Positions 48,330 through 63,795 of a stretch of 64,000 bases of DNA are shown here, in pieces; within the stretch, counting starts at the first letter, position 1, and the number at the start of each line of letters is the position of its first letter. Where the stretch lies: the NCBI RefSeq assembly GCF_988243305.1, contig NZ_OZ547136.1; one strand, 5' to 3'. The translations under genes were made by a program, and so were the position numbers. The notes beneath the pieces are model-generated. The model searched no databases. It had not been told where the DNA came from and saw only the letters and a program-made list of their open reading frames with translations.

Positions 48330-48494
48330 ATGGCAAAGCCGATCATCACGCTCAATGGCCTAAAAATCGTCATTATGTTGGGAATGCTGGTCATTATTCT
48401 CTGCGGTATCCGTTTTGCCGCCGAGATCATCGTGCCGTTTATTCTCGCATTATTTATTGCTGTTATATATAACTTATTTCACATAACACGTTGA
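48330..48494 (+). pseudogene. tqsA: tqsA (AI-2 transporter) 5' fragment, truncated by island insertion after codon ~46
   Basis: [46 protein letters not shown] then island sequence (YNLFHITR*); remainder of tqsA resumes at ~63787. Confidence 0.85.
48458..48466 (+). repeat. attL core (TGCTGTTAT)
   Basis: Identical 9-mer at 63787-63795; sequence to the left is tqsA, to the right is island. Confidence 0.7.
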
Positions 48495-48538
48495 TTTAAT
48501 TAAATAATTTTCACCGCAAAAAGTGCCAAAAATCGCAA

Positions 48539-48597
48539 AATGACTACACCAGTGACTACACCGTTCGGTGCACTGTATGAAACAACGTGGAACAAAT
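48539..48597 (+). repeat. Arm-type direct repeat block, left end: tandem (A/G)TGACTACACC x2 followed by GAACAA-type repeats
   Basis: atGACTACACCaGTGACTACACCgttcggtgcac...gaaacaacgtggaacaa; homologous block at 63636-63708. Confidence 0.6.
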
Positions 48598-48827
48598 AGA
48601 CACAAGAAATATACAGGCGGATCATCTTTCCAGGGGGAAGCGCACCAATTCATGAGGGGCGTTAATGTCGATATGGGGATCCCCACCTACCGGAATTTTT
48701 TTCCGGTTAAACGTTAATCAGGCTGGTGGGCTTTACCTGTTCGGTAGGTGTTATGATTATCGTAATACCTTTCCCCCAATGGGGTAAAAGCATCAACCGT
48801 AACGAAAGTCGTTATGGTTGCCACTGA

Positions 48828-48899
48828 TACCCCAAATTTGGGTATCACGAGTAAGACCCAAAATCTGGGTGTTACTCTTACTACCCAAACTACGGGTAG
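48828..48899. repeat. Three consecutive inverted repeats with TACCC/GGGTA arms, plus a 20-bp perfect palindrome gagttgcagatctgcaactc at ~48919-48938
   Basis: taccccaaatttgggta, acccaaaatctgggt, ctacccaaactacgggtag read directly; function unknown. Confidence 0.5.
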
Positions 48900-49231
48900 T
48901 TTCCGTAGTTTCATGGTCGAGTTGCAGATCTGCAACTCCCCCATTAACCACAGGCGAATTTCCGCCTTCGGTCATTCCTTAATCATCTGCGTAATCATAA
49001 TGATTATTCAGCAAGCGCAATTTTGCACTTTGCTTAAAGTTCAGCGAGTTACCGCGCCGACTTCCTCAAATTGAGGTTTCCGAAAATATCAGCGGGTTAG
49101 CGATTAAGCTGATCATTAATTAAACTGCGAAAATTTCGTAGTTTGTGACTGTCTTTCAGGCAGCTTGTTAACAGTCCTCAGAAGCGAGGGATGTAGCCAC
49201 CCATTTTTGGTCCGTCGGGAATATCAACCAG

Positions 49232-49513
49232 TTACCGCCGCAACCGCTCCGGCTTCTTCCAGTGGTACGTTATTTTCTCCTTCTCCCGATACATCTCCAC
49301 GCGGCGACGGTAGGCCAGCAACTCAAGAACTCTGGTTCGTATGTTGCGCATATCCACGCCATTAAGTTCTATACCATCACGGCGCATCACCTCAGCAACA
49401 ACACGCGCATAGTTTTCGGCTGTCACGCTGTCCGGCTGCGTGGCCTGTTCGTCAGCCTGCTGGCTGATTCCGGCAACGCGGCGGATTAATCCCGTTATTT
49501 CGGCTTCTGTCAT
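49232..49513 (-). CDS. Hypothetical protein downstream of terminase
   Basis: 93-aa ORF MTEAEITGLIRRVAGISQQADEQATQPDSVTAENYARVVAEVMRRDGIEL... Confidence 0.4.
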   Translation of the reverse strand: MTEAEITGLIRRVAGISQQADEQATQPDSVTAENYARVVAEVMRRDGIELNGVDMRNIRTRVLELLAYRRRVEMYREKEKITYHWKKPERLRR

Positions 49514-49526
49514 GCTGCTGACCTCA

Positions 49527-51188
49527 TTACACCCCGCTAAATTCTTCCAGTTTCTGGCGGTGGCTGTCGCTTATATCAAAAGCAAAATCCTCATGCTCTG
49601 CCTGGAATGTACCAAACGCCATCAGCGCCGCCACGCTCGGGTCTATCTTGTTCGGTGATTTTTTCTTGTTCGGCTTGATATTGGCGTTCGCGTCACTCTG
49701 CATCACGACGTTACTCATCGACCAGGACAACACCGGATCGCCACGATGCACAATCACCCTGCGGTTAACAAAAACTTCGAACGATTTCGCCGCCGGACTG
49801 AATCTGAGGTAGGTTTGCGGGAACGGCTCCACCTCAAAACCTGCCCCCTGTAATTGCGTTCTGAGATGCGTGGCGTTCCACGTATCAAAGCCCACCAGCC
49901 TGATATTAAATTTCTCCGCGTCCTGCATGATGTCATCTCTGATCCGGTCGTAATCAATGCAGTCGCCAGGCGTTGTGCGTATCCAGCCTGCTTTAGCCCA
50001 CTGACGATAGATGGCGCGGTTTTTATTGGCGGGGTTCTGTAGCTGAAATTCCGGCAGATAGTGACGGGAAACCAGCATAATGGTTTTACCGACCGGAAAG
50101 GCATAGCACACGCTGGAAATATCGCTGGTTGATGATAAGTCCAGCCCCGCGTAACACTCCTGGCCGTGTAAATCTTCCTCCGTGAACGTTCCGGCACACT
50201 CAGCCCATGCGCCGTTACCCATCCACGGGGTAGCCCCCAGGCACCAGATATTAAATCGCTTTGTCATCATCTCCACCCACTGCGACGGAATACCCCGCGC
50301 TTTCTGGATGGTTGAGGCCAGTTTTTCACGATCCACGGAAACATCAATATTAGGGTTCGCCTTTATCCACATCGCCGGATCATCAACCTCGTTTTCGTCG
50401 TCCAGTTCGTAAATCAGTACAAAAATTGAATCGTTGACCTCTTCGCCGTCCAGGATCTGGCAGCAATAATCATAGTGCTGCTTACAGGCTGAAACGACGT
50501 TACTGCCTGATGTGGTAATAGCAAATAACAGCCCTTCGGGACGTGCGCCCATCCCCAGCTCAAGCGCGGAATAAACGCCGTTATCGGGGTGCAAGTGGTA
50601 TTCGTCCACGATGGAAAGGCTGGGGTTTGTTCCCTCGATGGTTGCCGCTTTTGCTGCCAGCGGCTTTAACAGGCTGTTGCTTTTCGGGTGTATCACCTTA
50701 TGCGCCTGAATATTCACCCGCCTGCGTAACGGTCGGGATAAAAGGCACATCTGACGCGCATCATCAAAGACGATCCGCGCCTGGTCACGGCTCACCGCTG
50801 CGGTGTAAATATCCTGCTGACCGTTCTCCATAATCAGAAACCAGTTAGCCAGAATCGCGGCGGTCGTGGATTTCGCATTTTTGCGCGGCACTTCGATAAA
50901 GGCGCTCGTGTATTTGCGCCGTCCGGTGGCCTTAACCTTAAAGCCGAGGATGCACGCAAAGGCGAACTGCTGCCACGGCTCCAGCTCAATGGGTCTGCCA
51001 CGCATCGGCCCTTTTACGTGCGGGCACACCCTGGAAAAGGCAATAAACCGCTCCACAACCTCACGATCGAACGTGTAAAGGGGGCTTTCAAGGTCCGAAA
51101 AGTACCGTTTAACGGCCTGTTTCAGCCGTTTACAGGCCGGAATTTTGCCCGTTTTTACGTCTTCTGCGTACTTATTCCAGGCGGTCAA
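49527..51188 (-). CDS. Terminase large subunit
   Basis: 553-aa ORF with ATPase Walker A-like region ...VPRKNAKSTTAAILANW... and C-terminal nuclease region; typical TerL size. Confidence 0.85.
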   Translation of the reverse strand: MTAWNKYAEDVKTGKIPACKRLKQAVKRYFSDLESPLYTFDREVVERFIAFSRVCPHVKGPMRGRPIELEPWQQFAFACILGFKVKATGRRKYTSAFIEVPRKNAKSTTAAILANWFLIMENGQQDIYTAAVSRDQARIVFDDARQMCLLSRPLRRRVNIQAHKVIHPKSNSLLKPLAAKAATIEGTNPSLSIVDEYHLHPDNGVYSALELGMGARPEGLLFAITTSGSNVVSACKQHYDYCCQILDGEEVNDSIFVLIYELDDENEVDDPAMWIKANPNIDVSVDREKLASTIQKARGIPSQWVEMMTKRFNIWCLGATPWMGNGAWAECAGTFTEEDLHGQECYAGLDLSSTSDISSVCYAFPVGKTIMLVSRHYLPEFQLQNPANKNRAIYRQWAKAGWIRTTPGDCIDYDRIRDDIMQDAEKFNIRLVGFDTWNATHLRTQLQGAGFEVEPFPQTYLRFSPAAKSFEVFVNRRVIVHRGDPVLSWSMSNVVMQSDANANIKPNKKKSPNKIDPSVAALMAFGTFQAEHEDFAFDISDSHRQKLEEFSGV

Positions 51189-51528
51189 GCTCGTCCTCTT
51201 CTTCTGTTTCCGGTGGATTTTTACGGCGGCTTATCGGGTCAAAACCGAGCAAGGAGGCCATTTTTATCATCACCCTTTCAGCGTCGGATTTTGCGCTTAA
51301 TGCGGGGTTTCTGCTCTCGCCGCCCTGACTGTTAACAATGCTGAACCCGCGCGCCGCAAGGTCTGCAACGGCTTTCCGGTAAATGGAGTAGTTGACACAA
51401 TACAGTTCCAGATTGCTCCAGTCGGCGGGGGTCAGGTCTCCCCGTTCCGCAAGCTGCCGCGATTTTTCCCGCCACTGCTTCACGGCGATGTCATCCAGGT
51501 AGGCGGGGGCTTTCGGTGGTCTTGCCAT
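51172..51528 (-). CDS. Terminase small subunit (P27-family-like)
   Basis: 118-aa ORF immediately upstream of and overlapping TerL. Confidence 0.55.
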   Translation of the reverse strand: MARPPKAPAYLDDIAVKQWREKSRQLAERGDLTPADWSNLELYCVNYSIYRKAVADLAARGFSIVNSQGGESRNPALSAKSDAERVMIKMASLLGFDPISRRKNPPETEEEDELDRLE

Positions 51529-51651
51529 ACTTATTTTTTCGCCAGATTATTTTTCAAAAAATTCCCGTGCATAAAAATTTGAGGAGGCGTTCGGTGCCCG
51601 GCGGGGTCGGGTTTGTCCTGAAAACGCCCCCCACCCCGTCATACAGCCTCA

Positions 51652-51834
51652 TCAGCGATTGCGGAAACATTCCATAACCTCGCGGTCACGGTCGGTTAAT
51701 CGCTTCGCTGTGATGCGTTCTGCGCGTCCTGACGCTTTATCTTTATGCCCTGTTTCCTGTGTCTTCCATGCGTCACGCTGCCTTATAAGTCCACGGATAA
51801 GGCGGTTTTGTTCCCGCTCATTCATCAGCGTCAT
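51652..51834 (-). CDS. Small hypothetical protein between HNH and TerS (start assumed at internal Met)
   Basis: MTLMNEREQNRLIRGLIRQRDAWKTQETGHKDKASGRAERITAKRLTDRDREVMECFRNR; fills otherwise empty 290-bp gap. Confidence 0.3.
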   Translation of the reverse strand: MTLMNEREQNRLIRGLIRQRDAWKTQETGHKDKASGRAERITAKRLTDRDREVMECFRNR

Positions 51835-52258
51835 ACATCCAGTTATTGCGGTTAGCGGACCGTTCTTCCTCTTCACGAAATCCACCTGCGGCACGCTTGC
51901 TTTTTGTTGCCGGATCAAGCCATTTCGTTTTCTGGTTATGACACGCCTGACACAATGGCTGATGGTTCCATTCGGGCCAGAAGAGAACATCATCGCCGCC
52001 ATCGATGGGGATAATGTGATCCACCACCACGGCGGGCGTATATATCCCCTTCTCAAGGCATCGCACGCATAACGGGTTTTTACTCAGATACATGGCGCGG
52101 TATTTGTCCCACTGTCTGGAGTACCCACGCGCGCGGCGGTGTCCTCGTCTGGCATCCTCTGCACGCCATGCCGCCCGCCTGTGCTCCTCACACTTACCGG
52201 ACTTAACGCGCCTGTTACAGCCTGGTTCTGTACATCGTCTTAATGGTTGCCACGGCAT
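51818..52258 (-). CDS. HNH endonuclease (terminase-associated)
   Basis: 146-aa ORF with Cys-rich N-terminus and HNH motif ...VVDHIIPIDGGDDVLFWPEWNHQPLCQACHNQKT. Confidence 0.8.
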   Translation of the reverse strand: MPWQPLRRCTEPGCNRRVKSGKCEEHRRAAWRAEDARRGHRRARGYSRQWDKYRAMYLSKNPLCVRCLEKGIYTPAVVVDHIIPIDGGDDVLFWPEWNHQPLCQACHNQKTKWLDPATKSKRAAGGFREEEERSANRNNWMYDADE

Positions 52259-52554
52259 CAGTACACCCCCACATCACGGTAAGCCGTCCAGAGTGCGCCT
52301 ATCGTCATGGGTACGCGCGTTTTTGCGTTATCCGCGACAATCTGGCGATTTTCATACAGGTGAGCGATAAACATCATGCAGCCAATCTTTATGGCTGGCG
52401 TGAACTCCAGCCCGTCATCAAAGCGCCTGCCTATGTGTATCTGGCACGCCTCAAGCGATGCGGCAATGTATCCGCTGATTAACTGGTCTTCATCGTCGCC
52501 ATCGATGCGGCAATGGAGTTTCACTTCTTCCAGGGTGATAAGTTCTTCTGTCAT
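52258..52554 (-). CDS. Head-tail connector protein (gp6-like)
   Basis: 98-aa ORF MTEELITLEEVKLHCRIDGDDEDQLISGYIAASLEACQIHIGRRF... Confidence 0.55.
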   Translation of the reverse strand: MTEELITLEEVKLHCRIDGDDEDQLISGYIAASLEACQIHIGRRFDDGLEFTPAIKIGCMMFIAHLYENRQIVADNAKTRVPMTIGALWTAYRDVGVY

Positions 52555-52889
52555 TTTTCCGCGCCCTCACGACAAAGAATTTCAAGGCGTGTCCTGGCGG
52601 CATCCGGCAACGGTTGCCCGATGATATTCAGTACACGCCCCGCCAGCGGCCCTGTATTGACCTTTATCCGACTGGTGGCGTTGATGTCCTTCCGGTAGCG
52701 TATCCATATCCTTACCGTTCCAGTCGCCAGCTCTGCACCTGATGAAATGGCCTCCTTGCTGCTGATCATGTTCACGCTTGCCCAGAGTGTGTGACCGTCC
52801 ACCCACGTTTCGAGTATTTCGCCGGTTATATCCCTGGTCTGTTTCAGGGTCTGAATCGTTACCCTGTCACGCAGTCGCCCTATGTTCAT
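52551..52889 (-). CDS. Head closure / head-tail adaptor protein
   Basis: MNIGRLRDRVTIQTLKQTRDITGEILETWVDGHTLWASVNMISSKEAISSG...; start placed at Met overlapping portal stop. Confidence 0.55.
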   Translation of the reverse strand: MNIGRLRDRVTIQTLKQTRDITGEILETWVDGHTLWASVNMISSKEAISSGAELATGTVRIWIRYRKDINATSRIKVNTGPLAGRVLNIIGQPLPDAARTRLEILCREGAEK

Positions 52890-54097
52890 TCCGGTTTTTC
52901 TCCCTCGCTGATTTTTACTTCCTGTTTCCATGCCTGGCTGAACTCATCACCACCATCACGCGGGGACAGCCCTTCACGTTCGCGGGCTTCGTTCGGGCAC
53001 ATAACGCCGGATTTGATGCCGCGTTCATAGGTGGCAAAGCGTTCGCCAGGTGTGGCCCGTAACAGGTCCGCGCTGTCAAACTCCACCTGATACCGGATAC
53101 CAGGTACAGGCGAGGCCACCAGCAGGGCGTTTTTTATCTGCTGCTCAAAGTTCGCCAGCCACGGGCGCATCGTCATGGTGAGAAATGCGCGGCTTGCCTC
53201 GCTGAAGTTGCTGTAGGTGCTGTTGCTGTATTCCTGCAAAAAAATCGGCGAGACGTTGAACATTCGGGCGATGTCTTCAATGGTGAAGCGACGGGAGGCC
53301 AGCCATTCGGCATCCTGATTACTCATGCCCAGCTGCTGATAGCTCATCCCCCCTTCAAGGATGGGCGTTTTTCCGGCGTTTCTGGCCCCTTTGTAGCGTT
53401 CCAGTGCGGCTAATGCCTGTTTGCCCTTCACGCCGTCCAGCCATTCGCCTGACGTGATAACCCCTGCCGCCATCATGCCATCACGCATCACGCTCGCGCC
53501 GTGGCGTTGTTGGGCCAGCCCAAGCCCCAGCGATTCGCGGCAGATGGTTACAGGTGAGCGCCCCATAAAACCGTCATCCGTGGAGTAACGAAGGTGGAGA
53601 ACCTCCCACGGTAAATAGTTGCGGGTGTTTCCGGTGTAGGCGTCAGTGATGCAGTAGCGCCAGTTATGATCACCTGTCTGCTCCACGTTCACCGACTGCG
53701 GCGGGTAAGGATGTAAAGCCACCGGAAAACCATCACGCCCCCACTGAATCACCGCATAAGCATTACCGTTTAACAGGCAGTGGCGGATCATCATTCGCTT
53801 AAACTGGTAGGGAGTCTGCCACGCGTTCGGGCGCTCGTTGAGGATGTGATCGACCGGATGAGAATCAAGCCACTCGCGGGCCTCCTTCCCCTTCTCATTG
53901 CGTACCAGGTACAGGTAACACGGCATGGTAGCCACCGCCTCAGAGATGACCGTCACGGCGTTCATGACGGCGGGCAGTGATTCCGCTGTCCCCGATGATA
54001 CGTACTCACCCGCCCCCGTGTTCGATGTGCCAGCCAGCGCCATAAACTCATCAAGCGTCATGCTGCGCTGCTCTTTTTTTCTTCTGAAAGGCCACAT
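52886..54097 (-). CDS. Portal protein (HK97 family)
   Basis: 403-aa ORF of typical portal size in a terminase/portal/protease/capsid cluster. Confidence 0.8.
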   Translation of the reverse strand: MWPFRRKKEQRSMTLDEFMALAGTSNTGAGEYVSSGTAESLPAVMNAVTVISEAVATMPCYLYLVRNEKGKEAREWLDSHPVDHILNERPNAWQTPYQFKRMMIRHCLLNGNAYAVIQWGRDGFPVALHPYPPQSVNVEQTGDHNWRYCITDAYTGNTRNYLPWEVLHLRYSTDDGFMGRSPVTICRESLGLGLAQQRHGASVMRDGMMAAGVITSGEWLDGVKGKQALAALERYKGARNAGKTPILEGGMSYQQLGMSNQDAEWLASRRFTIEDIARMFNVSPIFLQEYSNSTYSNFSEASRAFLTMTMRPWLANFEQQIKNALLVASPVPGIRYQVEFDSADLLRATPGERFATYERGIKSGVMCPNEAREREGLSPRDGGDEFSQAWKQEVKISEGEKPE

Positions 54098-54098: not shown

Positions 54099-54671
54099 TC
54101 ACACCCCCGCTAAATCCACCCACCAGCGGCGATTATCCGCACGCGGCATTTTTTCGGGGTGCTGCTCATACAGGGAACGGCGGGCCAGCTCCACGCCGGA
54201 ATCGGGGTAAGCCGGTACCGATGTAACGGTAATTTCGTACAGTTCCGCCACCAGCACGGTGCGCACGCATGGATCTGTTGTGGTATCCCATACATCCTTA
54301 CGGGAGCGAAAGCCAAAGCTCATCCCCGAGATGTCCCCACGCTTAACCAGTTCGATAACGTCGCGCCCTGTACTGGTATCCGGTGGGGTCAGTTCAAAGC
54401 GTAACCCTGTTTCGTCCTCTTCCAGTTTCAGCGTGCCGGAACGGGTGCGCCCCAGTAACATGCTGTGGTCATGCTCATACAGGCCGCGAACGTCATTACC
54501 CGCCGCAAGCCACTCAGTAAACGCCCCCCGCTGGAATTTTTCGTAAAACTCCCCCCATAGCAGTTCTGAAAGCTTATCCCAGCGAACAACGTAGCCCGTC
54601 AGCGTACCGGCTCCGCTGGTAGTGATTTCCGATGACCGGATTTCCATACTCTTCATAATTTTTTCACCCAT
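54099..54671 (-). CDS. Prohead maturation protease (HK97 family)
   Basis: 190-aa ORF between capsid and portal genes. Confidence 0.7.
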   Translation of the reverse strand: MGEKIMKSMEIRSSEITTSGAGTLTGYVVRWDKLSELLWGEFYEKFQRGAFTEWLAAGNDVRGLYEHDHSMLLGRTRSGTLKLEEDETGLRFELTPPDTSTGRDVIELVKRGDISGMSFGFRSRKDVWDTTTDPCVRTVLVAELYEITVTSVPAYPDSGVELARRSLYEQHPEKMPRADNRRWWVDLAGV

Positions 54672-54710: not shown

Positions 54711-55868
54711 TTAATCGTCGTCCTGTGGCAGTTCCAGAATCTTGATCGCGTTCGAATCCACCACGCCACCGCCTAAATATTTCTGCGTGAAAATTTTGAT
54801 GAAGCCCGGCTCTGTGAGGTTGTCCGGTCTGGTGCGAACACCTGTTTCGTGATCAACAATGTAGTAACCGCGTTTGAAGTCACCCAGGGCAATAACGTTA
54901 TCCGGCATAAACTCCAGATATTCGACCGGAAGGCCCAGTAACGTATCAGGATCACCCGCCTGTAAACGGTCGCGCCAGATGTAATCACCGTTCGCGTTCT
55001 TCACCTTCTGAAGTTTTGCCGCCGTCGTGGAGTTAACCACCCAGACCGCGTTTTTGCGGTATTTTTTACGTAATGCAAATTTCAGGTCGATCAGCGGGTC
55101 CGCAGATGTCCACGCCAGAGATTCGGAAGGTTTAATTACCTGCAACGTACCAAAATCACGCTCTTTGTCGTTCTTCTCTGCACGGGGTACGGATAAAAAA
55201 CCTTTTGCTTTTTTGTCACCGTCGCCCACAACCAGATCGCTTTCTTCGGTTTCCGTGAAGGTGTCGCCAATCTCGCCCGTCAGCCATGAAAGGATGTCCA
55301 CATCGGAAAAATCCACGATTTCCTGTGTGGTGCGCGGGTACGCATAGACCGGATACAGCTTAATGCTCACCTCGTTAATCTGCGGGGTGCTGGTCTGTTC
55401 GCGTGTCTTACCCTCTTCACCGTGGTTAACGGTCGCACCGCCAGCGGAAACAAGCTGCTTAAACTCGTTGCTGCTGATTTTCTTCACGGTACAGATGCGG
55501 CGCATGGTGGACTCATCCGCCAGCATTCGCATGATTTCGGTGTTCAGTTCGGGGATAACGGTATAACCACCATCAGCGGGAACGCCTGTACTTAATGCGC
55601 GGGTTTCACCTGTCAGAATGTAGTTGCGTAGTTCTGCGGGGTCAGTGGTCTGGCTGCTTTTACCTGGCTTGCTGCGCTCTTCGTCTGCAATGGCTTCAAG
55701 GCGGGAAATGTCTTTATCGAGGGATTCAGCTTTAGCGCGTAATTCGTCAAATTTTGCGCCCTCAGCATCGTTAAGACTGCGGTTTTCTTTTTCCGCGTTC
55801 TCCAGCATGTCGCGCATCTGATTTTTAATGGCGGTTTTCTGCTGGCGTAATTCGATTATTCTCGGCAT
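54711..55868 (-). CDS. Major capsid protein (HK97 fold) with N-terminal coiled-coil delta/scaffold region
   Basis: MPRIIELRQQKTAIKNQMRDMLENAEKENRSLNDAEGAKFDELRAKAESLDKDISRLEAIADEE... then capsid domain; track ORF starts 15 codons upstream at a TTG. Confidence 0.8.
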   Translation of the reverse strand: MPRIIELRQQKTAIKNQMRDMLENAEKENRSLNDAEGAKFDELRAKAESLDKDISRLEAIADEERSKPGKSSQTTDPAELRNYILTGETRALSTGVPADGGYTVIPELNTEIMRMLADESTMRRICTVKKISSNEFKQLVSAGGATVNHGEEGKTREQTSTPQINEVSIKLYPVYAYPRTTQEIVDFSDVDILSWLTGEIGDTFTETEESDLVVGDGDKKAKGFLSVPRAEKNDKERDFGTLQVIKPSESLAWTSADPLIDLKFALRKKYRKNAVWVVNSTTAAKLQKVKNANGDYIWRDRLQAGDPDTLLGLPVEYLEFMPDNVIALGDFKRGYYIVDHETGVRTRPDNLTEPGFIKIFTQKYLGGGVVDSNAIKILELPQDDD

Positions 55869-56791: not shown

Positions 56792-56801
56792 CCTCACCCC
56801 C

Positions 56802-57212
56802 TCAGAACGGAATACCGTCACCGTAAGGGTCATCGCCTCCCGCTGGTGGCTGATTACCCTGTGTGCCTGTGGTTTTGCGTCTGTTCCCGCCAGGACGTGC
56901 CGCACGGGCACTGATTACGCTGTCTGCAATAACCTGCCAGCCCTGCCGCGTTTCTCCGTTCTGTCCGGTCCACTGGCTTACCTGCATCGTGCCGGATACG
57001 CTGGCAACATCGCCTTTTTGATGTTTAGCCAGGAAGTCGGCCTGTTTGCCAAATGCGATGACCGATAACCATAACGTCGCCTGTCCGTCCTGTGCCTGGC
57101 TGCATGGCAAAGATACCGCCATACGCGCCAGCGTCATCGGTGTGCCCTTGCTGGTCTGTTTTACCTGCGGGTCGTCCACCAGCCGCCCGTAAGCGGCTAT
57201 CTGTGCCGTCAT
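56802..57212 (-). CDS. Single-stranded DNA-binding protein (phage type)
   Basis: 136-aa ORF with OB-fold-like N-terminus, Gly/Gln/Pro-rich linker and acidic C-terminal tail DDPYGDGIPF. Confidence 0.7.
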   Translation of the reverse strand: MTAQIAAYGRLVDDPQVKQTSKGTPMTLARMAVSLPCSQAQDGQATLWLSVIAFGKQADFLAKHQKGDVASVSGTMQVSQWTGQNGETRQGWQVIADSVISARAARPGGNRRKTTGTQGNQPPAGGDDPYGDGIPF

Positions 57213-57409
57213 AATTCCACCTCTCCGGTTTTAACGTTGATGGTTGTTACCTGTTCCGCTTCGGCAATCTCCCGTTCTGTCAGCGTGGCAAAGTTTGCCG
57301 CCGCCGTGGTCATGAATGCGCTTATCAGGTCGGGATGTTCCTTCGCGTATCCTTCCCGCGTGTGGCGGTCTATCGTTCTGATTGCCACCTTTAAAGCGTG
57401 CTCAGTCAT
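57209..57409 (-). CDS. Small hypothetical protein (start at internal ATG to avoid the iteron region)
   Basis: MTEHALKVAIRTIDRHTREGYAKEHPDLISAFMTTAAANFATLTEREIAEAEQ... Confidence 0.35.
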   Translation of the reverse strand: MTEHALKVAIRTIDRHTREGYAKEHPDLISAFMTTAAANFATLTEREIAEAEQVTTINVKTGEVEL

Positions 57410-57469
57410 GTCTAACGCTTTATATTTTGGCTCTGTTCTGTCTCTGCGTTTTTGGGTCATTTCTCGCAA

Positions 57470-57665
57470 CCTCTCACTTTTTCGCCTCACTTTTTCAAGC
57501 GTCTCACTTCGTCGCAGTTGGGATTTTCGGTTTTTCTATGTGTGTGTTTCATAAGTATTTTTTTACCCCTCACTTTTGAGGATGTATACAGGTCGAAAAG
57601 TGAGGGAGAGCGGGCTAATTTTGGCCCTCTTTCTATCCCCCTCGCTTTTGCTCCTCACTTTTATA
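57470..57665. repeat. Island replication origin candidate: six or more CTCACTTTT iterons (one inverted) with an AT-rich stretch, directly downstream of the helicase gene
   Basis: cctctcactttttcgcctcactttttcaagcgtctcacttc...cccctcacttttgagg...cgaaaagtgaggg...ctcgcttttgctcctcactttta. Confidence 0.7.
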
Positions 57666-59061
57666 GCGGCGCTACATCATCCCCATCGATACGAATAACC
57701 CCATCTTTTTCCAGCTTGTACAGCCAGCGCCGGAAGTTTTTCATTTCATACCCCAGTTTTTTCATGTCATCACGTAACAGCGGGATCGTGCACTTGTCGC
57801 CGTTCTGTGTGCGTGAACGGATGCACCCCCATAGCGCGGTATGGTTTTCCGTCTTGTTCCCTGCCTCCTCGATGCGCTCCAGTTCAACAGGAGGGCGCGG
57901 ATCATCCACCACTACCAGCGACGTGATTAATTCACCGTCAGCGTCGGTAAAAAGCTCCACCACGCGTAAGTCATATGCGGCTTCTTTGAGTTCCTCCGCG
58001 TCCTTCATTTTGGTGCATGAGATAACCAGCGCTTCGCTTCCTGCGTCCTCCCTGCGTATCCGGTATTCAGCATCCAGCGAAGCACGAAATGCACTGGAAC
58101 CGCGCGCGCCTTTCGTCTCATCCTTGCCGGAATGGTGAACCACCAGCACCGTGGCCCCTGTGCGTCGTTTCAGTTCGTCACAACCACGGATAAACGCCCC
58201 CATATCACGGGAATCATTTTCATCATTCCCACCAAAGCAACGCGCCAGCGTATCCAGAATAATCATGCGTACAGGTTTACCCGTTTCCCGCTCCACCTGA
58301 CGGGCAGCGATAACCATTTCATCAACATCAAGCGGGGCAGCCGGAAAGATGGGGCGGTTTACCAGATACAGATTTTTCACCTGCTCATCGTGCACAACCT
58401 CCCAGGCTTTTACACGACGCGGAACACCTATACCGCCTTCACCAACCACATAGAGAACCGCACCATGTGCAACCCTGCGGCCTCCCCACTGGCGACCAGT
58501 GGCAACATGGCACGCCCACGATCCGGCAAGGAATGATTTATAGGACCCGCTAGCCCCGTATATGCTGCATAGCGATACCGCCGGAATAATCCCCTTAACC
58601 ACGTAATCCAGTTGCGTGTCGTATCCGGTAGATCCAACGCTCATCGGTAGCGTGGTTTTTCGCTGGTGGTTTTTTTCTTCCACCGGCTCTTTCCCGCGCA
58701 CCCGTTCCAGGTATTCGCGCCAGTTCTCCCGCATATGGCTGTGCATCCCTTCGGGGTAATAATTCGCATCAGTTACACCCGCCGCCGCCAGCTTGTGCGC
58801 AATGGCATTAATATTTGATGGCCTGATGTGGCCTGCCTTGTACAGCCGGACACAATAGCGCCCCTCGTCGATGATTCTCAGGTCTGCCAGTTCATCCAGT
58901 TGATCATCAGCCAGCACAACGGGAGGCACATTATCGCCAGCCAGTCGCCCGTCCTGTTCCTGCCACTGTTTCGCATGTGCCCAGGCATCACTACCCGCAA
59001 AAATAATGACTTCGGTCATCTTGTCGTAAGGCTGTTTTTTTAAGTTCGGTGCGCTTTTCAT
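57661..59061 (-). CDS. Replication initiator / helicase-like RecA-fold ATPase (RepA/DnaB-like)
   Basis: 466-aa ORF with Walker A GASGSYKS and RecA-like C-terminal domain; followed by iterons. Confidence 0.65.
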   Translation of the reverse strand: MKSAPNLKKQPYDKMTEVIIFAGSDAWAHAKQWQEQDGRLAGDNVPPVVLADDQLDELADLRIIDEGRYCVRLYKAGHIRPSNINAIAHKLAAAGVTDANYYPEGMHSHMRENWREYLERVRGKEPVEEKNHQRKTTLPMSVGSTGYDTQLDYVVKGIIPAVSLCSIYGASGSYKSFLAGSWACHVATGRQWGGRRVAHGAVLYVVGEGGIGVPRRVKAWEVVHDEQVKNLYLVNRPIFPAAPLDVDEMVIAARQVERETGKPVRMIILDTLARCFGGNDENDSRDMGAFIRGCDELKRRTGATVLVVHHSGKDETKGARGSSAFRASLDAEYRIRREDAGSEALVISCTKMKDAEELKEAAYDLRVVELFTDADGELITSLVVVDDPRPPVELERIEEAGNKTENHTALWGCIRSRTQNGDKCTIPLLRDDMKKLGYEMKNFRRWLYKLEKDGVIRIDGDDVAPL

Positions 59062-59357
59062 TTCTTGCCCCTGAATCCGTTAATCATGGTTTTCAGCTTC
59101 TGGATGTTTGCCCGTGCCCTGGCGTTGCTGGTGGGCACGTTATGCGGCGCGGTCTGTACCAGAGAAAAATCACGCCGGAACTGATAAACAGGCATCACGC
59201 AATCATATTCGTAACCTTCACGGCGGTAGGTTACGCGCCGTTCTTCCACGCCCTTAATCATTACCGTGCCGCCGTACTGGTCGCGGTAAATATCACCGCG
59301 CGTAAATTTAGGGTGAGTGTTGCCACTGGCAGTTAAGCCAGAATATTTAAGTTTCAT
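59058..59357 (-). CDS. Hypothetical protein
   Basis: 99-aa ORF translationally coupled to helicase gene. Confidence 0.4.
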   Translation of the reverse strand: MKLKYSGLTASGNTHPKFTRGDIYRDQYGGTVMIKGVEERRVTYRREGYEYDCVMPVYQFRRDFSLVQTAPHNVPTSNARARANIQKLKTMINGFRGKK

Positions 59358-59362: not shown

Positions 59363-59596
59363 TTATTCTCCGGTGTGCTGTTCTTTATATCTGTCGTGCA
59401 ATAGATCTATTTCTTGCAGTTCCATTATTACAGGCTCAAGAAGCGTTATTAATGCCGTGGCAATTCTTGATTTTTGTTTGTCGCGTTCATTGTCGCCAAG
59501 TGTTTCAAGCCATATGCGCAATATTTCCAGCATGTTTTCACTGTGAGAAAGTGCAAGAAATACGCGGTCTATTGTTTCGTGGTAAATATCACGCAT
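59363..59596 (-). CDS. Hypothetical protein
   Basis: 77-aa ORF in same-strand small-gene array. Confidence 0.4.
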   Translation of the reverse strand: MRDIYHETIDRVFLALSHSENMLEILRIWLETLGDNERDKQKSRIATALITLLEPVIMELQEIDLLHDRYKEQHTGE

Positions 59597-59597
59597 A

Positions 59598-59819
59598 TTA
59601 ATCCCCGTCCGTCGTTTTTCTTAAAATAACCTCTGTCACGAAATCAGCATAATCGGCGGCGATATTCAGTACATCAAGCCCCGTTGATTTATATTCTCTC
59701 GTGGAAAGTAAGAAAAAAGCCGCTCTAATAAGTTCTGGCATTGACGAAAGCGCATCAGCCGCATCATCAGGAACGCCGGAAAATTCCTGTTTCAGGGAAT
59801 TAAAACGATCATCACGCAT
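59598..59819 (-). CDS. Hypothetical protein
   Basis: 73-aa ORF in same-strand small-gene array. Confidence 0.4.
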   Translation of the reverse strand: MRDDRFNSLKQEFSGVPDDAADALSSMPELIRAAFFLLSTREYKSTGLDVLNIAADYADFVTEVILRKTTDGD

Positions 59820-60034
59820 AACCCCCCCCCATTTTCACAATCAGCAACAAGAATATTTTTAGCGTCATTCAGCGACCGCGTTGCGATGTATCGGATACAT
59901 TCCAGGGCGAACTGTGTCCGGTCTTTCTGTTCTTCTCCCTGCGCAAGCTCTGCAGTGCATTCAATATCGATAAGCGCGTGCATCAGCGTAGTGAGCGCGG
60001 CGGCTGCTGCGTCCGGTGTGGTTTTATTGCACAT
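59792..60034 (-). CDS. Hypothetical protein (start at internal Met)
   Basis: MCNKTTPDAAAAALTTLMHALIDIECTAELAQGEEQKDRTQFALECIRYIATRSLNDAKNILVADCENGGG... Confidence 0.35.
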   Translation of the reverse strand: MCNKTTPDAAAAALTTLMHALIDIECTAELAQGEEQKDRTQFALECIRYIATRSLNDAKNILVADCENGGGLCVMIVLIP

Positions 60035-60314
60035 GGCACACCTCCTGACGAATACGGGCGGCGAATACAGCAACACAACCGGACGGGCAACGGCTACGCG
60101 CTTCGCGTTCCGTCCAGGCGGTTACGTGGATGATTTGAGATTCTCCGGCACTTAGTGCCAGAAAACGCCACACAAAGGCCGTTTGTGTGTGTATAAGGCG
60201 TGGTATATGATTTACGGCAACCATAACGGCTCCTAGTTTACGTTGTTGGTTAGACGCCCCGTATGTGTTCCCAGCACTGCGGGGCGTTGATTTTTGTGTA
60301 ATGGCAAGTACAAT

Positions 60315-60358
60315 GGTAATTACCATGTAGGTATAGTAATGAAGGGTAATTACCATGT
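60315..60358. promoter_or_regulatory. Two copies of operator-like palindrome GGTAATTACCATGT, the second overlapping the RHH gene start codon
   Basis: caatGGTAATTACCATGTaggtatagtaatgaaggGGTAATTACCATGtca. Confidence 0.6.
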
Positions 60359-60528
60359 CAACACCATTAGAAAAACGTTCGCCTCCATACCAAATGCGAT
60401 TACCGGAAGACTTCAGAGCGCAGCTAGAAGAAGCAGCTAAGGCCGATGGCGACACATCTTTAGCCACTTGGATTAAACGCGTTCTCCGCAAAGAATTACA
60501 GCAACGCGGCATAGAGCCAAAAGGTTGA
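60355..60528 (+). CDS. Ribbon-helix-helix (Arc/CopG-like) DNA-binding protein
   Basis: 57-aa product MSTPLEKRSPPYQMRLPEDFRAQLEEAAKADGDTSLATWIKRVLRKELQQRGIEPKG; RHH-like beta-strand (MRLPEDF) then helices; too short for ORF track. Confidence 0.55.
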   Translation: MSTPLEKRSPPYQMRLPEDFRAQLEEAAKADGDTSLATWIKRVLRKELQQRGIEPKG

Positions 60529-60549
60529 ATTTCAGAAGGAGATAAAATA

Positions 60550-60702
60550 ATGAACTGGCTGTTACATACCCTCCCAGGTCGCATTCTCATTGCACTAATT
60601 ATTTTATGGATTTTGTACCAATTCGGTTTTTTCGATTCGCTTTGGAAGCCTGACTGTTCCGTTAACCCTGGCGATGTACTGAAAGGCTGTAAAAATGGCT
60701 GA
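60550..60702 (+). CDS. Small membrane protein (50 aa)
   Basis: MNWLLHTLPGRILIALIILWILYQFGFFDSLWKPDCSVNPGDVLKGCKNG; SD aggagat; followed by hairpin ccctctt/aagaggg terminator. Confidence 0.45.
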   Translation: MNWLLHTLPGRILIALIILWILYQFGFFDSLWKPDCSVNPGDVLKGCKNG

Positions 60703-61057
60703 TCAGGGTTACTCCCTGTAATGCCTTTAACTGGCCCTCTTAAAGAGGGTTGGTTATCTTCGCAGCTCTCTACGTTTTTCGTCGGAACCTCTGAACCTAA
60801 GCAGTGTTGATGTTCAGGAGAACCCGAATACTGTTCGTGTTCGTTGCTCGCCAATTCTCGCGTTTCGCGATAATCAAAATGATTCAATGGGTTGAGATGT
60901 CCGTACGTTAAACGTACGCGGTTAATTTGTACATGCGAATTTCGTCGGCTCAAATTCTGCGCAACCCTGCTTGAGTTATGCAAATAGCACGCGGCTAACT
61001 CACAAGGATTTGAGCGCCCCCAAACGGGGGAGCGCAAAATTTTAGGCATAAGACGCA

Positions 61058-61771
61058 TCAGCGAATCTCCAACACTGACGATGAAGTGATCAGGCTGGCG
61101 AACGCATCCATACGGCGGGCAACCTCACGCACCGCATCGCCTGGACTCATGTCATTACGCACCGCCTCATTAAAGGCCGCCTGTTCGATTTTCTGCATCA
61201 CTACCAACAGCCCCAATTGCTGTTCGTCTGCGGTACCGCGTTCACCATCAGACAAACCAGCCACGCGGTTTTCAGCGCGGGCCAGATTGATGTAATGGTG
61301 CCGTTGTGCGCCCAGAGCTTTTAATCTGTCGCGGCTTTCGTGATAGCCAGGCAGGTACTCACGGCGGATAGGTTCTGCGGCGCGGCGCTTAGTGAATGCC
61401 TTCGTAACATCCAGTTTGAACTGGTTAATACGCTCAGGATCACGCCCTCGGGTGATACGCAGCAGATAGTCGAGCTGCGGCTCATTCAGCAGATAACTAA
61501 TCTCAGGACGCCCACGCTTTCGGCCGGATTTTCCCGATTTCAAATCGGTTAATTCCTTGAGTGACTGACGAGGCAGTGATCCCAGCTCGCGCAATCTGCT
61601 CTGGTGCGATTTAATCGTCGCGCTTAAGCTTTCATGTTGTATTCCGGCTCGCTCTGAAATAACGCGGGAATCGATACGCGGCTCCGATTTGTGATTAATT
61701 AAAATATCGCTCTGGCTGGCTTCAGGGCGAACGAATCCCCGCCCACGTTCTGGCGTATATTCAATCTTCAT
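61058..61771 (-). CDS. Phage regulatory protein (Rha-family-like), assignment tentative
   Basis: 237-aa ORF; N-terminal ...ILINHKSEPRIDSRVISERAGIQHESLSATIKSHQSRL... resembles Rha-type regulators. Confidence 0.4.
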   Translation of the reverse strand: MKIEYTPERGRGFVRPEASQSDILINHKSEPRIDSRVISERAGIQHESLSATIKSHQSRLRELGSLPRQSLKELTDLKSGKSGRKRGRPEISYLLNEPQLDYLLRITRGRDPERINQFKLDVTKAFTKRRAAEPIRREYLPGYHESRDRLKALGAQRHHYINLARAENRVAGLSDGERGTADEQQLGLLVVMQKIEQAAFNEAVRNDMSPGDAVREVARRMDAFASLITSSSVLEIR

Positions 61772-61828
61772 GGTTATAGCTCTGTGTTCAGATGATTGAT
61801 GTGTGGCGGCTGCGTGCCGCCAGCGTGA

Positions 61829-62017
61829 TTAATGAACTGCCTTGCAGCTATCCTTCCAGGCCAGAACCTCGGATAAAGACCAGCCAACGGAACGACCGCC
61901 AAGTTTACGACGTGATGGGAATTGTCCGGCCTTTTCCAGGCGGTAGCGACACGTACGGCTAAGGCCGGTTAGTTTTTCGCATTCTTTTTCACGTATAAAC
62001 CGATCAGTGCTTAACAC
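61829..62017 (-). CDS. alpA: AlpA-family transcriptional regulator / excisionase
   Basis: 62-aa ORF ...EKLTGLSRTCRYRLEKAGQFPSRRKLGGRSVGWSLSEVLAW... (AlpA HTH pattern). Confidence 0.7.
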   Translation of the reverse strand: MLSTDRFIREKECEKLTGLSRTCRYRLEKAGQFPSRRKLGGRSVGWSLSEVLAWKDSCKAVH

Positions 62018-62290
62018 TATTGCCCCCTTTCGTTTCTTAAAGAGTCATCAGGTGTCTTATTGTGTCGTATTGTTCCCGCTAGAGTGATAAATGGCAAATA
62101 CTGAGGATGTATGATTTACAGAAAATGAAACAGTAAGAATAAAATCTTTTAAATTCATGTTAATACAAAGGCATAAAATATTGTTTCATGCCTTTTTTCT
62201 CGCTCTTTAAAGAGTGATTCGCTAGTGTATAAAAAACCAGTAACGCATTAAAAATCAGCTACTTATAAATCCGTACGCTTTTTCGCCTCT

Positions 62291-62340
62291 TGTTCGTAGT
62301 TGTTCCACATTGTTGCTCATTGTTGCACGTTGTATCTGTT
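62291..62340. repeat. Five tandem 10-bp repeats TGTTnnnnnT (GAACAA-type on minus strand) between int and alpA
   Basis: tgttcgtagt tgttccacat tgttgctcat tgttgcacgt tgtatctgtt read directly. Confidence 0.55.
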
Positions 62341-62381
62341 CGCATATACAGTATGCGCATACTGAAAAAACACGAAAAAAA

Positions 62382-63599
62382 TTATTTTCTTCTGGCTACT
62401 GGTAGCGTGGTTACGTTTTCATGTGTTCCCGCCAGTATCCCTAACCGCTCCGTCCACATATCCAGCGCATTGCGTTTAGCATCCAGATAACGGGAATGAT
62501 TATAAACTCGCTGCATTCCTGGCATCTGGTGGCCTGTAAGCTGCTCCACGACATGCGGATCAACGCCTAAATCGTTCAGCATGGTTGTAAAGGTGCGCCG
62601 GATGTCATGCAGTGACCAGTGAGGATGATTAAGCCTCCTGTGCGCTAATCTTCCATACTGCGATACGCTGGCCTCCTGTTTCACTTCCCCCAGCAATAAG
62701 CCCGTGTGCCTGTTCTGCTCCACCAGCTGCGTGACGAACGGCAGGATCGCTTCCGGTATGGGCCGGAATATTGCGACCTTCGTTTTGCTGTGCTCCTTCG
62801 GAACGGTCCATAGCATTTCCGTAAAATCCCACTCCCCGATCTCCGATAACCTCAGTTCTACCGTTCTGGCTCCGAAGACAATCAGGAGGCGGATTAACGC
62901 GACGTAGTAAGGGGAGAATATTTTTTTGTCCAGTGCCTGCAATAATTCGCCAAGTTCTTTGTTACTTAAGACACGTTCGCTTATATCCGGTTTTTTCCCA
63001 ACGTCCGCCACGTTCAGATCGTCCAGAACGTTGCTGATTGCATAGCGCCGCCTACGGCAGAACTTAAGCGCCTGTTTGCACGCCTGTAGCACGAATCCGG
63101 CAGTAACAGGCGTTCGCTTTGCCACCTGGTCAAAACAGGCCAGCCAGTGCCGTAGCTCGCATTTATCCAGCGGCATAGCACCAATCTGCTGTATTACGTG
63201 ATTATTAAGTCGCCTTTTCAGGGCGATATAATCCACGCGGTTTTCCTTTACGTAATACTCAAGCCAGTAGGTGAGCGCATCGCCAACCGTTACGGGCTTT
63301 AACGCTTCCTGTACGGTGTAATTCATCTCATGACGTGGATTTTTCCCCTCAGCCAGCCATGTGCGACACTGTGCGGCTTTTTCCCTGGCTGCTTTCAGGC
63401 TCAGATCAGGATAACTTCCCAGCTTAATGCGTTCGGGTCGTGTCTCCCTTCCCGTTCCGGCCCTGTATGTGAAATACCAGGTCAATTTCCCTGATGTTAA
63501 ATATTTCACGCTCAGGTTTCCGCCATCACTATAAAACGTGTTTTTCTCCGCTGGCTTACCATGAAGTTTCCTTAGCAAGGTATCGCTCAGTTTGTTCAT
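62382..63599 (-). CDS. int: Tyrosine integrase (P4-like, PICI-type)
   Basis: MNKLSDTLLRKLHGKPAEKNTFYSDGGNLSVKYLTSGKLTWYFTYRAG...; C-terminal ...HDIRRTFTTMLNDLGVDPHVVEQLTGHQMPGMQRVYNHSRY; track ORF starts 4 codons earlier at GTG. Confidence 0.9.
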   Translation of the reverse strand: MNKLSDTLLRKLHGKPAEKNTFYSDGGNLSVKYLTSGKLTWYFTYRAGTGRETRPERIKLGSYPDLSLKAAREKAAQCRTWLAEGKNPRHEMNYTVQEALKPVTVGDALTYWLEYYVKENRVDYIALKRRLNNHVIQQIGAMPLDKCELRHWLACFDQVAKRTPVTAGFVLQACKQALKFCRRRRYAISNVLDDLNVADVGKKPDISERVLSNKELGELLQALDKKIFSPYYVALIRLLIVFGARTVELRLSEIGEWDFTEMLWTVPKEHSKTKVAIFRPIPEAILPFVTQLVEQNRHTGLLLGEVKQEASVSQYGRLAHRRLNHPHWSLHDIRRTFTTMLNDLGVDPHVVEQLTGHQMPGMQRVYNHSRYLDAKRNALDMWTERLGILAGTHENVTTLPVARRK

Positions 63600-63635
63600 T
63601 GCTCTGCTCACGTTTTACCCCCTCTTTACGAAAAA

Positions 63636-63708
63636 GTGACTACACCAGTGACTACACCGATCGTTGCACAAAGGGCTACAACGTGAAACAAGCTGGAACA
63701 AGGAAAAT
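63636..63708 (+). repeat. Arm-type direct repeat block, right end (GTGACTACACC x2 plus GAAACAA/GGAACAA)
   Basis: gtGACTACACCaGTGACTACACCgatcgttgcac...gtgaaacaagctggaacaa; matches left block at 48539-48597. Confidence 0.6.
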
Positions 63709-63786
63709 CACAAATCTGTTGATAATCAAAAACATAATGCACAGCCTGAAACATTATGAAACAGCAAAAAACACTAAATGATAAAA

Positions 63787-63795
63787 TGCTGTTAT
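63787..63795 (+). repeat. attR core (TGCTGTTAT)
   Basis: Identical to 48458-48466; tqsA sequence resumes here. Confidence 0.7.

Follow-up and report, generated by a model that had tools for sequence, protein, structure and literature searches.

The window analysed here (the whole stretch of 64,000 nucleotides) very probably carries an intact capsid-forming phage-inducible chromosomal island (cf-PICI) of the EcCIEDL933 type (OI-51/CP-933C/Sp7), inserted by its P4-type tyrosine integrase at a 9-bp core in tqsA. The element comprises 15,329 bp (window positions 48467-63795), with its genes on the minus strand except for one pair of small genes. The flanking sequence, TGCTGTTAT, occurs exactly twice in the 64-kb window, at 48458-48466 and 63787-63795; as at least two matches were also obtained in 8 of 100 shuffles, the repeat count alone is weak. 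When the element was removed in silico, joining 48330-48466 to 63796-64000, an unbroken tqsA frame was recovered, collinear with the intact tqsA of strain 2012C-4221 (no indels, 5 SNPs in 342 nt). TGCTGTTAT is thus the true att core, and the claim of the original prediction that a 9-bp direct repeat bounds a 15.3-kb element splitting tqsA is borne out by the exact restoration of the gene. Features are given below (families matched, with the value of the match, in brackets).

48330-48466, plus: tqsA 5' fragment, codons 1-45; its translation is that of TqsA, in frame with 63796 onward, and it ends in the attL core
48458-48466, unstranded: attL core TGCTGTTAT, assigned from the 9-bp repeat and tqsA restoration
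48537-48612, plus: left arm module, tandem (A/G)TGACTACACC twice, then box ACAACGTGGAACAA; 76-nt direct repeat with 63633-63708
48690-48975, minus: non-coding terminal region rich in hairpins; contains the conserved 18-mer (48717-48734)
49232-49513, minus: orf93, conserved last gene of PICIs and cf-PICIs (phrog_1561, 2.9e-56)
49527-51188, minus: terminase large subunit TerL (phrog_9, 2.5e-178)
51172-51528, minus: terminase small subunit TerS, P27 family (phrog_83, 2.6e-39)
51652-51834, minus: orf60, small conserved packaging-module ORF (phrog_3173, 9e-36), 100% identical to the O157 element
51818-52258, minus: HNH endonuclease, packaging cofactor (phrog_144, 1.2e-44)
52258-52554, minus: head-tail adaptor Ad1 (phrog_40, 8.4e-36)
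52551-52889, minus: head closure protein Hc1, in the 112-aa form given by the annotation of relatives (phrog_25, 6.3e-35)
52886-54097, minus: portal (phrog_12, 6.9e-117)
54099-54671, minus: HK97-type prohead protease (phrog_80, 1.9e-67)
54711-55868, minus: HK97-fold major capsid protein (MCP) with N-terminal delta/scaffold region (phrog_10, 1.6e-88)
56086-56099, plus: box ACAACGTGGAACAA ahead of the capsid operon, preceded by a terminator-like hairpin (56133-56150)
56170-56394, minus: orf74, conserved hypothetical (phrog_1957, 5.4e-41)
56564-56833, minus: PchE-like regulator of the PerC family, with an uncertain start codon (phrog_994, 2.9e-33; also PHROGs of transcriptional activators)
56802-57212, minus: SSB (phrog_44, 3.6e-40)
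57209-57460, minus: orf83, conserved hypothetical (phrog_1231, 5.8e-53)
57472-57662, minus: iteron-type replication origin, six AAAAGTGAGG around an A+T-rich core, directly after the helicase gene
57661-59061, minus: RepA-type helicase/replicase (phrog_2850, 1.6e-266)
59058-59357, minus: RgdR orthologue, DUF4222, 99 aa, RGD at residues 20-22 (phrog_285)
59363-60076, minus: three small conserved ORFs of 77, 73 and 94 aa (phrog_2196; phrog_2512/24341; phrog_5146)
60024-60224, minus: Icd-like protein, first gene of the replication operon (NF033153, 1.1e-16; phrog_29966, 2.3e-32)
60355-60528, plus: RHH/Arc-like regulator (phrog_228, 1.5e-6)
60550-60702, plus: hydrophobic small membrane protein of 50 aa, forming a divergent pair (60355-60702) with the RHH gene
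61058-61771, minus: Rha-family protein, encoded in the variable slot that follows alpA (PF09669, 3.2e-5)
61829-62017, minus: alpA, activator/excisionase-type winged-helix protein (phrog_2790, 2.5e-17)
62300-62333, minus: ACAATGTGGAACAA and ACAACGTGCAACAA, two copies of the box in the int-alpA interval
62382-63611, minus: tyrosine integrase int, P4-type (phrog_1, 7.3e-72)
63633-63708, plus: right arm module, GTGACTACACC twice and box ACAACGTGAAACAA, repeat of the left arm
63787-63795, unstranded: attR core TGCTGTTAT; beyond it lies the 3' part of tqsA, cut off by the window end

Class assignment followed the cf-PICI criteria of Alqurainy et al. 2022/23 and the SatelliteFinder cfPICI model; 969 cfPICIs have been catalogued. 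Profile searches recovered all 11 SatelliteFinder core components (int, alpA, replicase, capsid, protease, portal, adaptor, head closure, HNH, TerS and TerL) at full length and in canonical order. The int/AlpA/replicase module, which is shared with PICIs, is 91-100% identical to known elements, both connectors are encoded, integration is site-specific with flanking direct repeats, and gene order and size are those of proteobacterial cf-PICIs (~14-15 kb). The coding capacity of the element is fully accounted for. No tail, baseplate, holin or endolysin family was matched by the 30 ORFs scanned against PHROGs, and none of the tail, lysis and immunity modules of a complete temperate prophage was found. 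Ten small or accessory ORFs gave no match to the defence families of PADLOC, and there is thus no sign of immune cargo. The predicted absence of tail and lysis genes is upheld, and the proposal of a satellite that builds its own capsid and would borrow tails is supported.

Every member of the HK97-like head set proposed from the letters (capsid with scaffold domain, protease, portal, two connectors, HNH, TerS, TerL) passed the profile searches. The order of these genes had been called unusual; this has to be withdrawn, since capsid, protease, portal, connectors, HNH, TerS and TerL follow each other in the published typical order of proteobacterial cf-PICIs. The MCP carries K290, E319, D295, D257 and R345, five positions at which mutations abolish or reduce the transfer of EcCIEDL933. 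Phage HK97 likewise has an HK97-fold MCP with a delta domain, a prohead protease, a portal and HNH-assisted TerS/TerL cos packaging, but it differs in gene order and head (T=7 versus T=4), and the element lacks tail, lysis and immunity genes; its sequence identity to phages is low (under 40%). A lambda-type cosN was sought in the element with no match, the sole exact match (position 3327) being that of the resident prophage, and no cos site was located in the island. By analogy with HK97, the 124-nt gap between orf60/HNH and terS (51529-51651) might be guessed to hold the cos site of the island.

Outside the head module, the calls of int and alpA, of Rha-like and RHH regulators, of SSB and a PerC-like regulator, and of a helicase-like ATPase followed by an iteron origin all stand, the origin having six AAAAGTGAGG copies within 57472-57662 against four in the other 63.8 kb. 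The Rha-family protein has 220 homologues, many bearing the name Rha family regulator, and is 96.5% identical to a protein of another cf-PICI, at yhdJ. Together with the RHH/small-membrane-protein pair, whose position is occupied in relatives by a YlcI/YnfO protein, it lies in the known variable slot after alpA; divergent promoter-like sites were located at 60287-60361. An ORF of 344 aa (60024-61058) was rejected as spurious because its family match is limited to the C-terminal 66 aa (60024-60224, the Icd-like protein), the rest corresponding to a convergent intergenic region and two plus-strand genes. PerC family is the annotation of the PchE-like gene in relatives, the RgdR features agree with the description in PMC3378721, and orf93 has 242 relatives in IMG/VR.

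The prototype cf-PICI, EcCIEDL933 (O-island 51/CP-933C/Sakai Sp7) of E. coli O157:H7, has the same architecture and gene order (15.4 kb, versus 15.3 kb here). The O157:H7 island used for comparison was that of strain 2571, at phoQ/roxA, which was equated with EcCIEDL933 by site, size and content rather than by the EDL933 sequence; protein identities to it are 99.5% for the MCP, 99.8% for the portal, 97.9% for the protease, 98.0% for the adaptor, 98.2% for the closure protein, 97.9% for HNH, 100% for TerS, 98.9% for TerL, 94% for RepA, 96% for SSB, 97% for RgdR and 93.5% for alpA. The O157:H7 island lies between phoQ and roxA whereas the present copy lies in tqsA, and their integrases are 91% identical. 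In the tqsA copy, other genes have taken the place of the alpA-proximal region (a Rha-family gene and an Icd-like/RHH pair of another kind, the Icd-like proteins being 50% identical), there are fewer small ORFs, and the terminal non-coding region has different hairpin modules. The present copy differs by mosaic exchange only.

Closer relatives in terms of site are the cf-PICIs at tqsA of E. coli 14EC001 and PCN033, which have the same attL/attR and share 99.5-99.8% identity in int, 100% in alpA and 96-100% in the packaging module. The 14EC001 island has an IS1 in its head-closure gene and another gene after alpA, and the PCN033 island a primase-type replicase instead of RepA; both are without the Rha-family gene, sharing only its first 16 codons. 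That gene is found directly after an alpA-like gene in the yhdJ cf-PICI of E. coli FDAARGOS_1283, presumably of an EcCIGN02175-like lineage, which has the same overall layout but another att site, a primase-type replicase and more distant proteins (Int 51%, alpA 47%, MCP 64%, adaptor 63%, closure 53%). The TIGER islands Eco282.16.tqsA and Eco557.15.tqsA occupy the same tqsA site, which had been catalogued by Bobay 2013 and in the TIGER survey of 2020 (islands of 15-16 kb). The same junction was found in 245 of 5,426 complete E. coli genomes, among which the exact mosaic of the element is absent (best match, 89% coverage at 98.1% identity). Both the element type and the site being already catalogued, neither is noteworthy as such.

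Two cis features were considered further. The box ACAACGTGNAACAA is restricted to the element, where both att arms carry it, two copies lie ahead of alpA and another lies ahead of the capsid operon; these four regulatory or att positions are the same in relatives, including the O157:H7 island. The arm-module motifs are likewise confined to the element, and the modules are probably arm-type sites for Int/AlpA. The hairpin-rich terminal region gave fold z-scores of -8.4 and -10.9 on the two strands, and its core (48821-48943) is common to classical PICIs. No match was returned by Rfam at a permissive threshold over 44-64 kb, which covers this region and the 1-kb stop-free stretch 60024-61058, or when the terminal region was searched by BLAST in 50,697 phage records. 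The 18-mer (48717-48734) is perfectly complementary over its 18 nt to positions 49887-49904 in terL. Antisense or long-range RNA control of terL is nevertheless not supported, because the 18-mer is equally well kept after orf93 in classical PICIs devoid of terL; an altered 18-mer at two loci, with no matching change in terL, also speaks against it. No description of either feature was found in the literature examined. That both are functional is a tentative and rather doubtful proposal. Under it, a single regulator, with AlpA the likeliest, could use the box as its operator and so tie together excision, the autoactivation of alpA and expression of the late operon, and the terminal region with its 18-mer could be a cis signal, RNA or DNA, common to classical PICIs and cf-PICIs.

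Other readings of the region were weighed against the same evidence. Classical E. coli PICIs (EcCICFT073 type) have int, alpA, replication and RgdR modules, orf93 and the terminal hairpin core in common with the element, and their induction is alpA-dependent, which could suggest a satellite redirecting helper capsids. They are, however, without portal, connectors, HNH and TerL, redirect helper capsids and terminase by Rpp, and have lambda-like cos sites. Here portal, adaptor, closure and TerL are all encoded, components by which SatelliteFinder excludes an element from the PICI class, and neither an Rpp/DUF1441 protein nor a ClpP-MCP fusion (features of L008/L009) is present. Resemblance to P4 is limited to the types of int, alpA and replicase, and no ORF matched the P4 Sid, Psu or Delta families in PHROGs. 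A classical PICI or a P4-like satellite is refuted by gene content, and we regard its probability as negligible. Only slightly more credible, and still very improbable, is an immobile remnant of a P4/HK97-like phage from which the tail and lysis genes have been lost. CP-933C/Sp7, the equivalent in O157, was first annotated as a cryptic prophage of P4 ancestry, "unusual and highly degraded", and the head genes are indeed phage homologues; yet every gene is present at full length, collinear with an element of an experimentally mobile type, no pseudogenes were seen in the core set, and the compact architecture recurs in hundreds of genomes, at several att sites, without tail remnants.

A less remote alternative, possible but clearly the less probable one, is that a structurally intact cf-PICI is stranded in this strain for want of a resident inducer or tail donor, its only role then being that of an island carrying regulators (PchE-like, RgdR) and keeping tqsA disrupted. 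The sole visible prophage, put forward as a candidate helper in the original prediction, is lambdoid (lambda-type Nu1/A/W/B genes, an exact lambda cosN, tail genes beyond window position 1), unlike the HNH-dependent helpers described for EcCIEDL933 and targeted by the cf-PICI family; no compatible helper or tail donor can be made out within the window. None of the 17 prophages of EDL933 induces EcCIEDL933, and the adaptor and closure proteins share 98% identity with their O157 (EcCIEDL933-type) versions, EcCIEDL933 having used the tails of HK106 and not those of HK022. Against this, the visible genome amounts to 64 kb and other prophages may exist, tails from outside the cell can join tail-less capsids, and lambda induces the alpA of a classical PICI.

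For the intact cf-PICI, a life cycle can be outlined from experiments on EcCIEDL933, for which only have alpA-mediated induction, small island-made capsids, exclusive self-packaging and tail dependence been shown; the EcCIEDL933-type capsid is T=4, its particles are tail-less, and tail choice is set by the adaptor/connector. Given the 98-100% protein identity to the O157:H7 island, we infer that these properties extend to the tqsA copy. A helper phage would switch alpA on, and AlpA would activate its own promoter and the island cycle. Int would excise the island, restoring tqsA, and the circle would be replicated by the RepA-type helicase, starting at the iteron origin that directly follows the helicase gene. 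From the late operon, the capsid protein with its delta domain, the protease and the portal would assemble a small T=4 HK97-fold head, into which one 15.3-kb genome, cut at the cos of the island itself, would be packaged by HNH, TerS and TerL. The adaptor and head closure proteins would complete a tail-less head, expected to become infective only once joined to a phage-supplied siphovirus tail.

The proper annotation of the region is therefore a cf-PICI and not a cryptic prophage; being a further copy, with slight mosaicism, of a satellite that has been well studied, it adds little to the knowledge of the type. In complete E. coli genomes, an island with the same end splits tqsA in about 4.5% of cases. 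Between islands that differ in integrase, att site and alpA-proximal genes, the head and packaging module of the EcCIEDL933 type is kept nearly unchanged (98-100% protein identity). RgdR and the PchE-like protein, regulators of motility and of the LEE, on whose type III secretion system they act in EHEC, travel on such islands outside O157. As tqsA encodes an AI-2 exporter and would be made whole again by excision, induction of the satellite might be coupled to the export of a quorum signal, a tentative and rather doubtful link for which TIGER had already flagged tqsA as a candidate.

The 9-mer TGCTGTTAT occurs exactly twice in the 64-kb window, at 48458-48466 and 63787-63795. At least two copies were also reached in 8 of 100 shuffles; two copies alone are unremarkable, and the boundaries are decided by the tqsA context. 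The start of tqsA lies left of the first copy and its reading frame resumes right of the second. When joined, 48330-48466 and 63796-64000 form 342 nt that align, with 5 SNPs and no indels, to the uninterrupted tqsA of E. coli 2012C-4221, which confirms the original prediction of a 9-bp direct repeat bounding a 15.3-kb element that splits this gene. The element is 15,329 bp long and its genes lie on the minus strand. In-frame stop codons stand immediately 5' of the core at attR, so that tqsA is truncated after codon 45 by the integration, and not rebuilt. Outside the element, the window holds the usual E. coli chromosome (ynfE to mdtJ) and a lambdoid prophage.

Thirty ORFs were searched against PHROGs, and subsets of them against NCBIfam, Pfam and PADLOC.

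Features of the element, in order from attR (in brackets, identity to the 15.5-kb island found between phoQ and roxA in E. coli O157:H7 strain 2571)
Gene 1, minus strand: P4-type tyrosine integrase (int, 91%)
Gene 2, minus strand: alpA (93.5%)
After alpA, minus strand: Rha-family protein, 237 aa, PF09669
After the Rha gene, plus strand, convergent: Arc/RHH protein and 50-aa hydrophobic protein
Minus strand: Icd-like protein, then three small conserved ORFs
59058-59357: DUF4222 protein, 99 aa, preceding the helicase
Minus strand: RepA-type helicase (94%), preceding the iterons
After the helicase: iteron stretch, 190 bp, six copies of AAAAGTGAGG flanking an A+T-rich core
After the iterons, in this order: small ORF, SSB (96%), PerC-family regulator (56564-56833), second small ORF
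Late operon, unbroken: major capsid protein (MCP, 99.5%), prohead protease (97.9%), portal (99.8%), head closure (98.2%), head-tail adaptor (98.0%), then packaging genes
Late operon, end part: HNH (97.9%), 60-aa ORF (orf60), TerS (100%), TerL (98.9%), 93-aa ORF (orf93)

The head and packaging gene calls of the original prediction were upheld by these profile searches, as was the expected lack of tail genes: none of the 30 ORFs matched tail, baseplate, fibre, holin or endolysin families in PHROGs. Ten small or accessory ORFs gave no match to defence families in PADLOC. A 344-aa stop-free ORF (60024-61058, minus strand) was rejected as an artefact; its last 66 aa alone match (Icd-like), and the rest overlaps the two plus-strand genes and their convergent intergenic region, with hairpins at ~60750 and ~61035.

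In the founding paper on capsid-forming PICIs (cf-PICIs), the prototype EcCIEDL933 is an island of 15.4 kb that has int, alpA and rep together with genes for capsid, protease, portal, head-tail connectors, HNH, TerS and TerL; tail genes are absent. The gene content and gene order of the element match this published definition. The reading as a capsid-forming PICI-like satellite was thus accurate, and the packaging gene order, which had been called unusual, is the standard one of the family. The cfPICI model of SatelliteFinder comprises 11 core components and forbids tails and holins; it yielded 969 cfPICIs, carried by 13% of Enterobacteriaceae genomes. All 11 components are present in the element, which would thereby rank as Type A. 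The element is a textbook, already known example of a family that was characterised between 2022 and 2025.

The strain 2571 island is taken to be OI-51/CP-933C/Sp7, i.e. EcCIEDL933, by site, size and content, the EDL933 sequence itself not having been compared. Judged by protein identity, the defining module of the element is nearly identical to that of the prototype. Capsid residues K290, E319, D295, D257 and R345, whose mutation abolishes or reduces EcCIEDL933 transfer, are all present at the same positions in the element MCP. The DUF4222 protein has an RGD motif at residues 20-22, together with K35, A10 and R45; RGD at 20-22 and K35 are marks of RgdR (ECs1581), a LEE/motility regulator of OI-51, and the protein is its orthologue. 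The PerC-family gene corresponds to the PchE-like gene described in OI-51. In O157, the RgdR and PchE-like regulators of OI-51 modulate LEE type III secretion and motility.

In E. coli 14EC001 and PCN033, too, tqsA is occupied by a close cf-PICI. The 14EC001 copy aligns to 89% of the element at 98.1% identity and has its head-closure gene interrupted by an IS1; in the PCN033 copy, the replicase is of primase type, not RepA. Among 5,426 complete E. coli genomes, 245 have the junction, as judged by a match to at least 80% of a 120-nt probe spanning attL; 58 carry 80% or more of the element, and none has its exact mosaic. A 2013 list of genes disrupted by prophage integration includes tqsA, and the TIGER survey (2020) reported islands Eco282.16.tqsA, Eco557.15.tqsA and Eco33.11.tqsA, with tqsA a candidate for "regulated gene integrity". 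Given these records and the published cf-PICI family, both the element type and the tqsA site are catalogued.

A 1.46-kb segment (~60260 to 61720), which includes the Rha-family gene as well as the RHH/small-protein pair, is without counterpart in the 14EC001 and O157 islands. The Rha-family protein has 220 database relatives, mostly named Rha family regulators. The yhdJ cf-PICI of E. coli FDAARGOS_1283, a distant relative (MCP 64%, int 51% identical), has a Rha gene of 96.5% identity in the equivalent slot, immediately following its alpA-like gene; the segment is thus a case of module swapping at a hot spot that is already known. Promoter-like sites stand back to back at 60287-60361, between the plus-strand Arc/RHH gene and the Icd-like-to-replication operon, the minus-strand site being TTGACA-17-TACTAT. 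Such a divergent arrangement is reminiscent of a genetic switch. At this position, PICIs and cf-PICIs alike keep the RHH (YlcI/YnfO-type) protein. To our knowledge, no repressor is known in Gram-negative PICIs.

The 14-mer box ACAACGTGNAACAA (at most one mismatch) has five copies in the window, all within the element (0.09 expected): 48582-48595, 56086-56099, 62300-62313, 62320-62333 and 63678-63691. Both att-proximal arms carry one, two lie between int and alpA, upstream of alpA, and one lies upstream of the capsid operon, directly following a terminator-like hairpin. The PCN033 and O157 islands have the box at the same positions, and the 14EC001 island keeps three of four sites (arms and capsid-upstream), the int-alpA site not being found at one-mismatch stringency; the box is absent from the yhdJ element, which has different int and alpA alleles. 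The boxes are possibly an operator set, bound by AlpA or another shared factor (or Int). Adjoining the arm boxes, a 76-nt direct repeat includes a tandem of two GTGACTACACC copies (48540-48562 and 63636-63658), at ~75 and 130 bp, respectively, from the nearest att core. In a classical PICI whose integrase differs, the equivalent position is taken by a tandem repeat of another sequence, and the GTGACTACACC tandems are probably arm-type sites of the integrase.

The interval between orf93 and attL (760 bp) is non-coding and folds into a series of hairpins, with six or seven in 48690-48975 (fold z of -8.4 on one strand and -10.9 on the other). The region has no match in Rfam or among phages. Its 123-nt core (48821-48943) is also present, without annotation, at the end of classical PICIs, and was found in ~1,180 complete E. 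coli genomes, these PICIs included. Comparison of 46 IMG/VR loci shows a mosaic region, whose modules are swapped or differ in sequence while each still forms a hairpin. An 18-mer (48717-48734) is the perfect inverted complement of a terL stretch (49887-49904); a regulatory pairing is not supported, as the 18-mer shows no co-variation with terL, and PICIs lacking terL keep it as well.

The lambdoid prophage, on the rspB side (window 1-27150), extends from its int (~25.8-27.1 kb) leftwards beyond position 1. Its visible genes include lambda-type Nu1, A, W and portal, a lysis cassette and a Q-like antiterminator, and the exact lambda cosN GGGCGGCGACCT is at 3327 on the minus strand. It also has iss, hokD, dicB, tRNA-Arg(tct), a CAU-anticodon tRNA and, mid-prophage (~11.8-18.0 kb), a 6-kb non-phage cargo block encoding an MFS transporter, a gamma-glutamylcyclotransferase, LysR, DUF2254 and a BCCT transporter. 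According to the cf-PICI authors, the family hijacks helper phages with HNH-requiring packaging, whereas this prophage packages with a Nu1/A terminase and lambda cosN. EcCIEDL933 was induced by none of the 17 EDL933 prophages; lambda, by contrast, induces alpA of a classical PICI. The visible part of the prophage has no tail genes, which lie outside the window, and it stands as a candidate helper. At a comparison locus (E. coli O111:H8 strain 8E, NZ_CP077465.1 1843905-1862012), a classical PICI directly adjoins a truncated prophage terminase gpA gene, a 'helper-embedded satellite' configuration described in PMC10111431.

In EcCIEDL933, alpA is activated by helper phages and is required for induction and transfer. 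Transfer, but not replication, depends on every one of the island's packaging genes; small heads (~46-47 nm, T=4) are built from island proteins and contain island DNA only. Transfer needs helper tail genes, and the heads, released tail-less, can take tails of other phages, the fit being decided by the adaptor and connector proteins. The 124-nt interval that separates orf60/HNH from terS (51529-51651) might, as a guess, be the cos site of the element, since the HK97 cos is flanked by the HNH and terS genes. Excision, replication from the iterons, cos packaging and tail pick-up are putative steps of its cycle. Because these proteins are 98-100% identical to those of the O157 island, the element would be induced through alpA, build its own small heads, package itself and borrow tails in the same way as the prototype.
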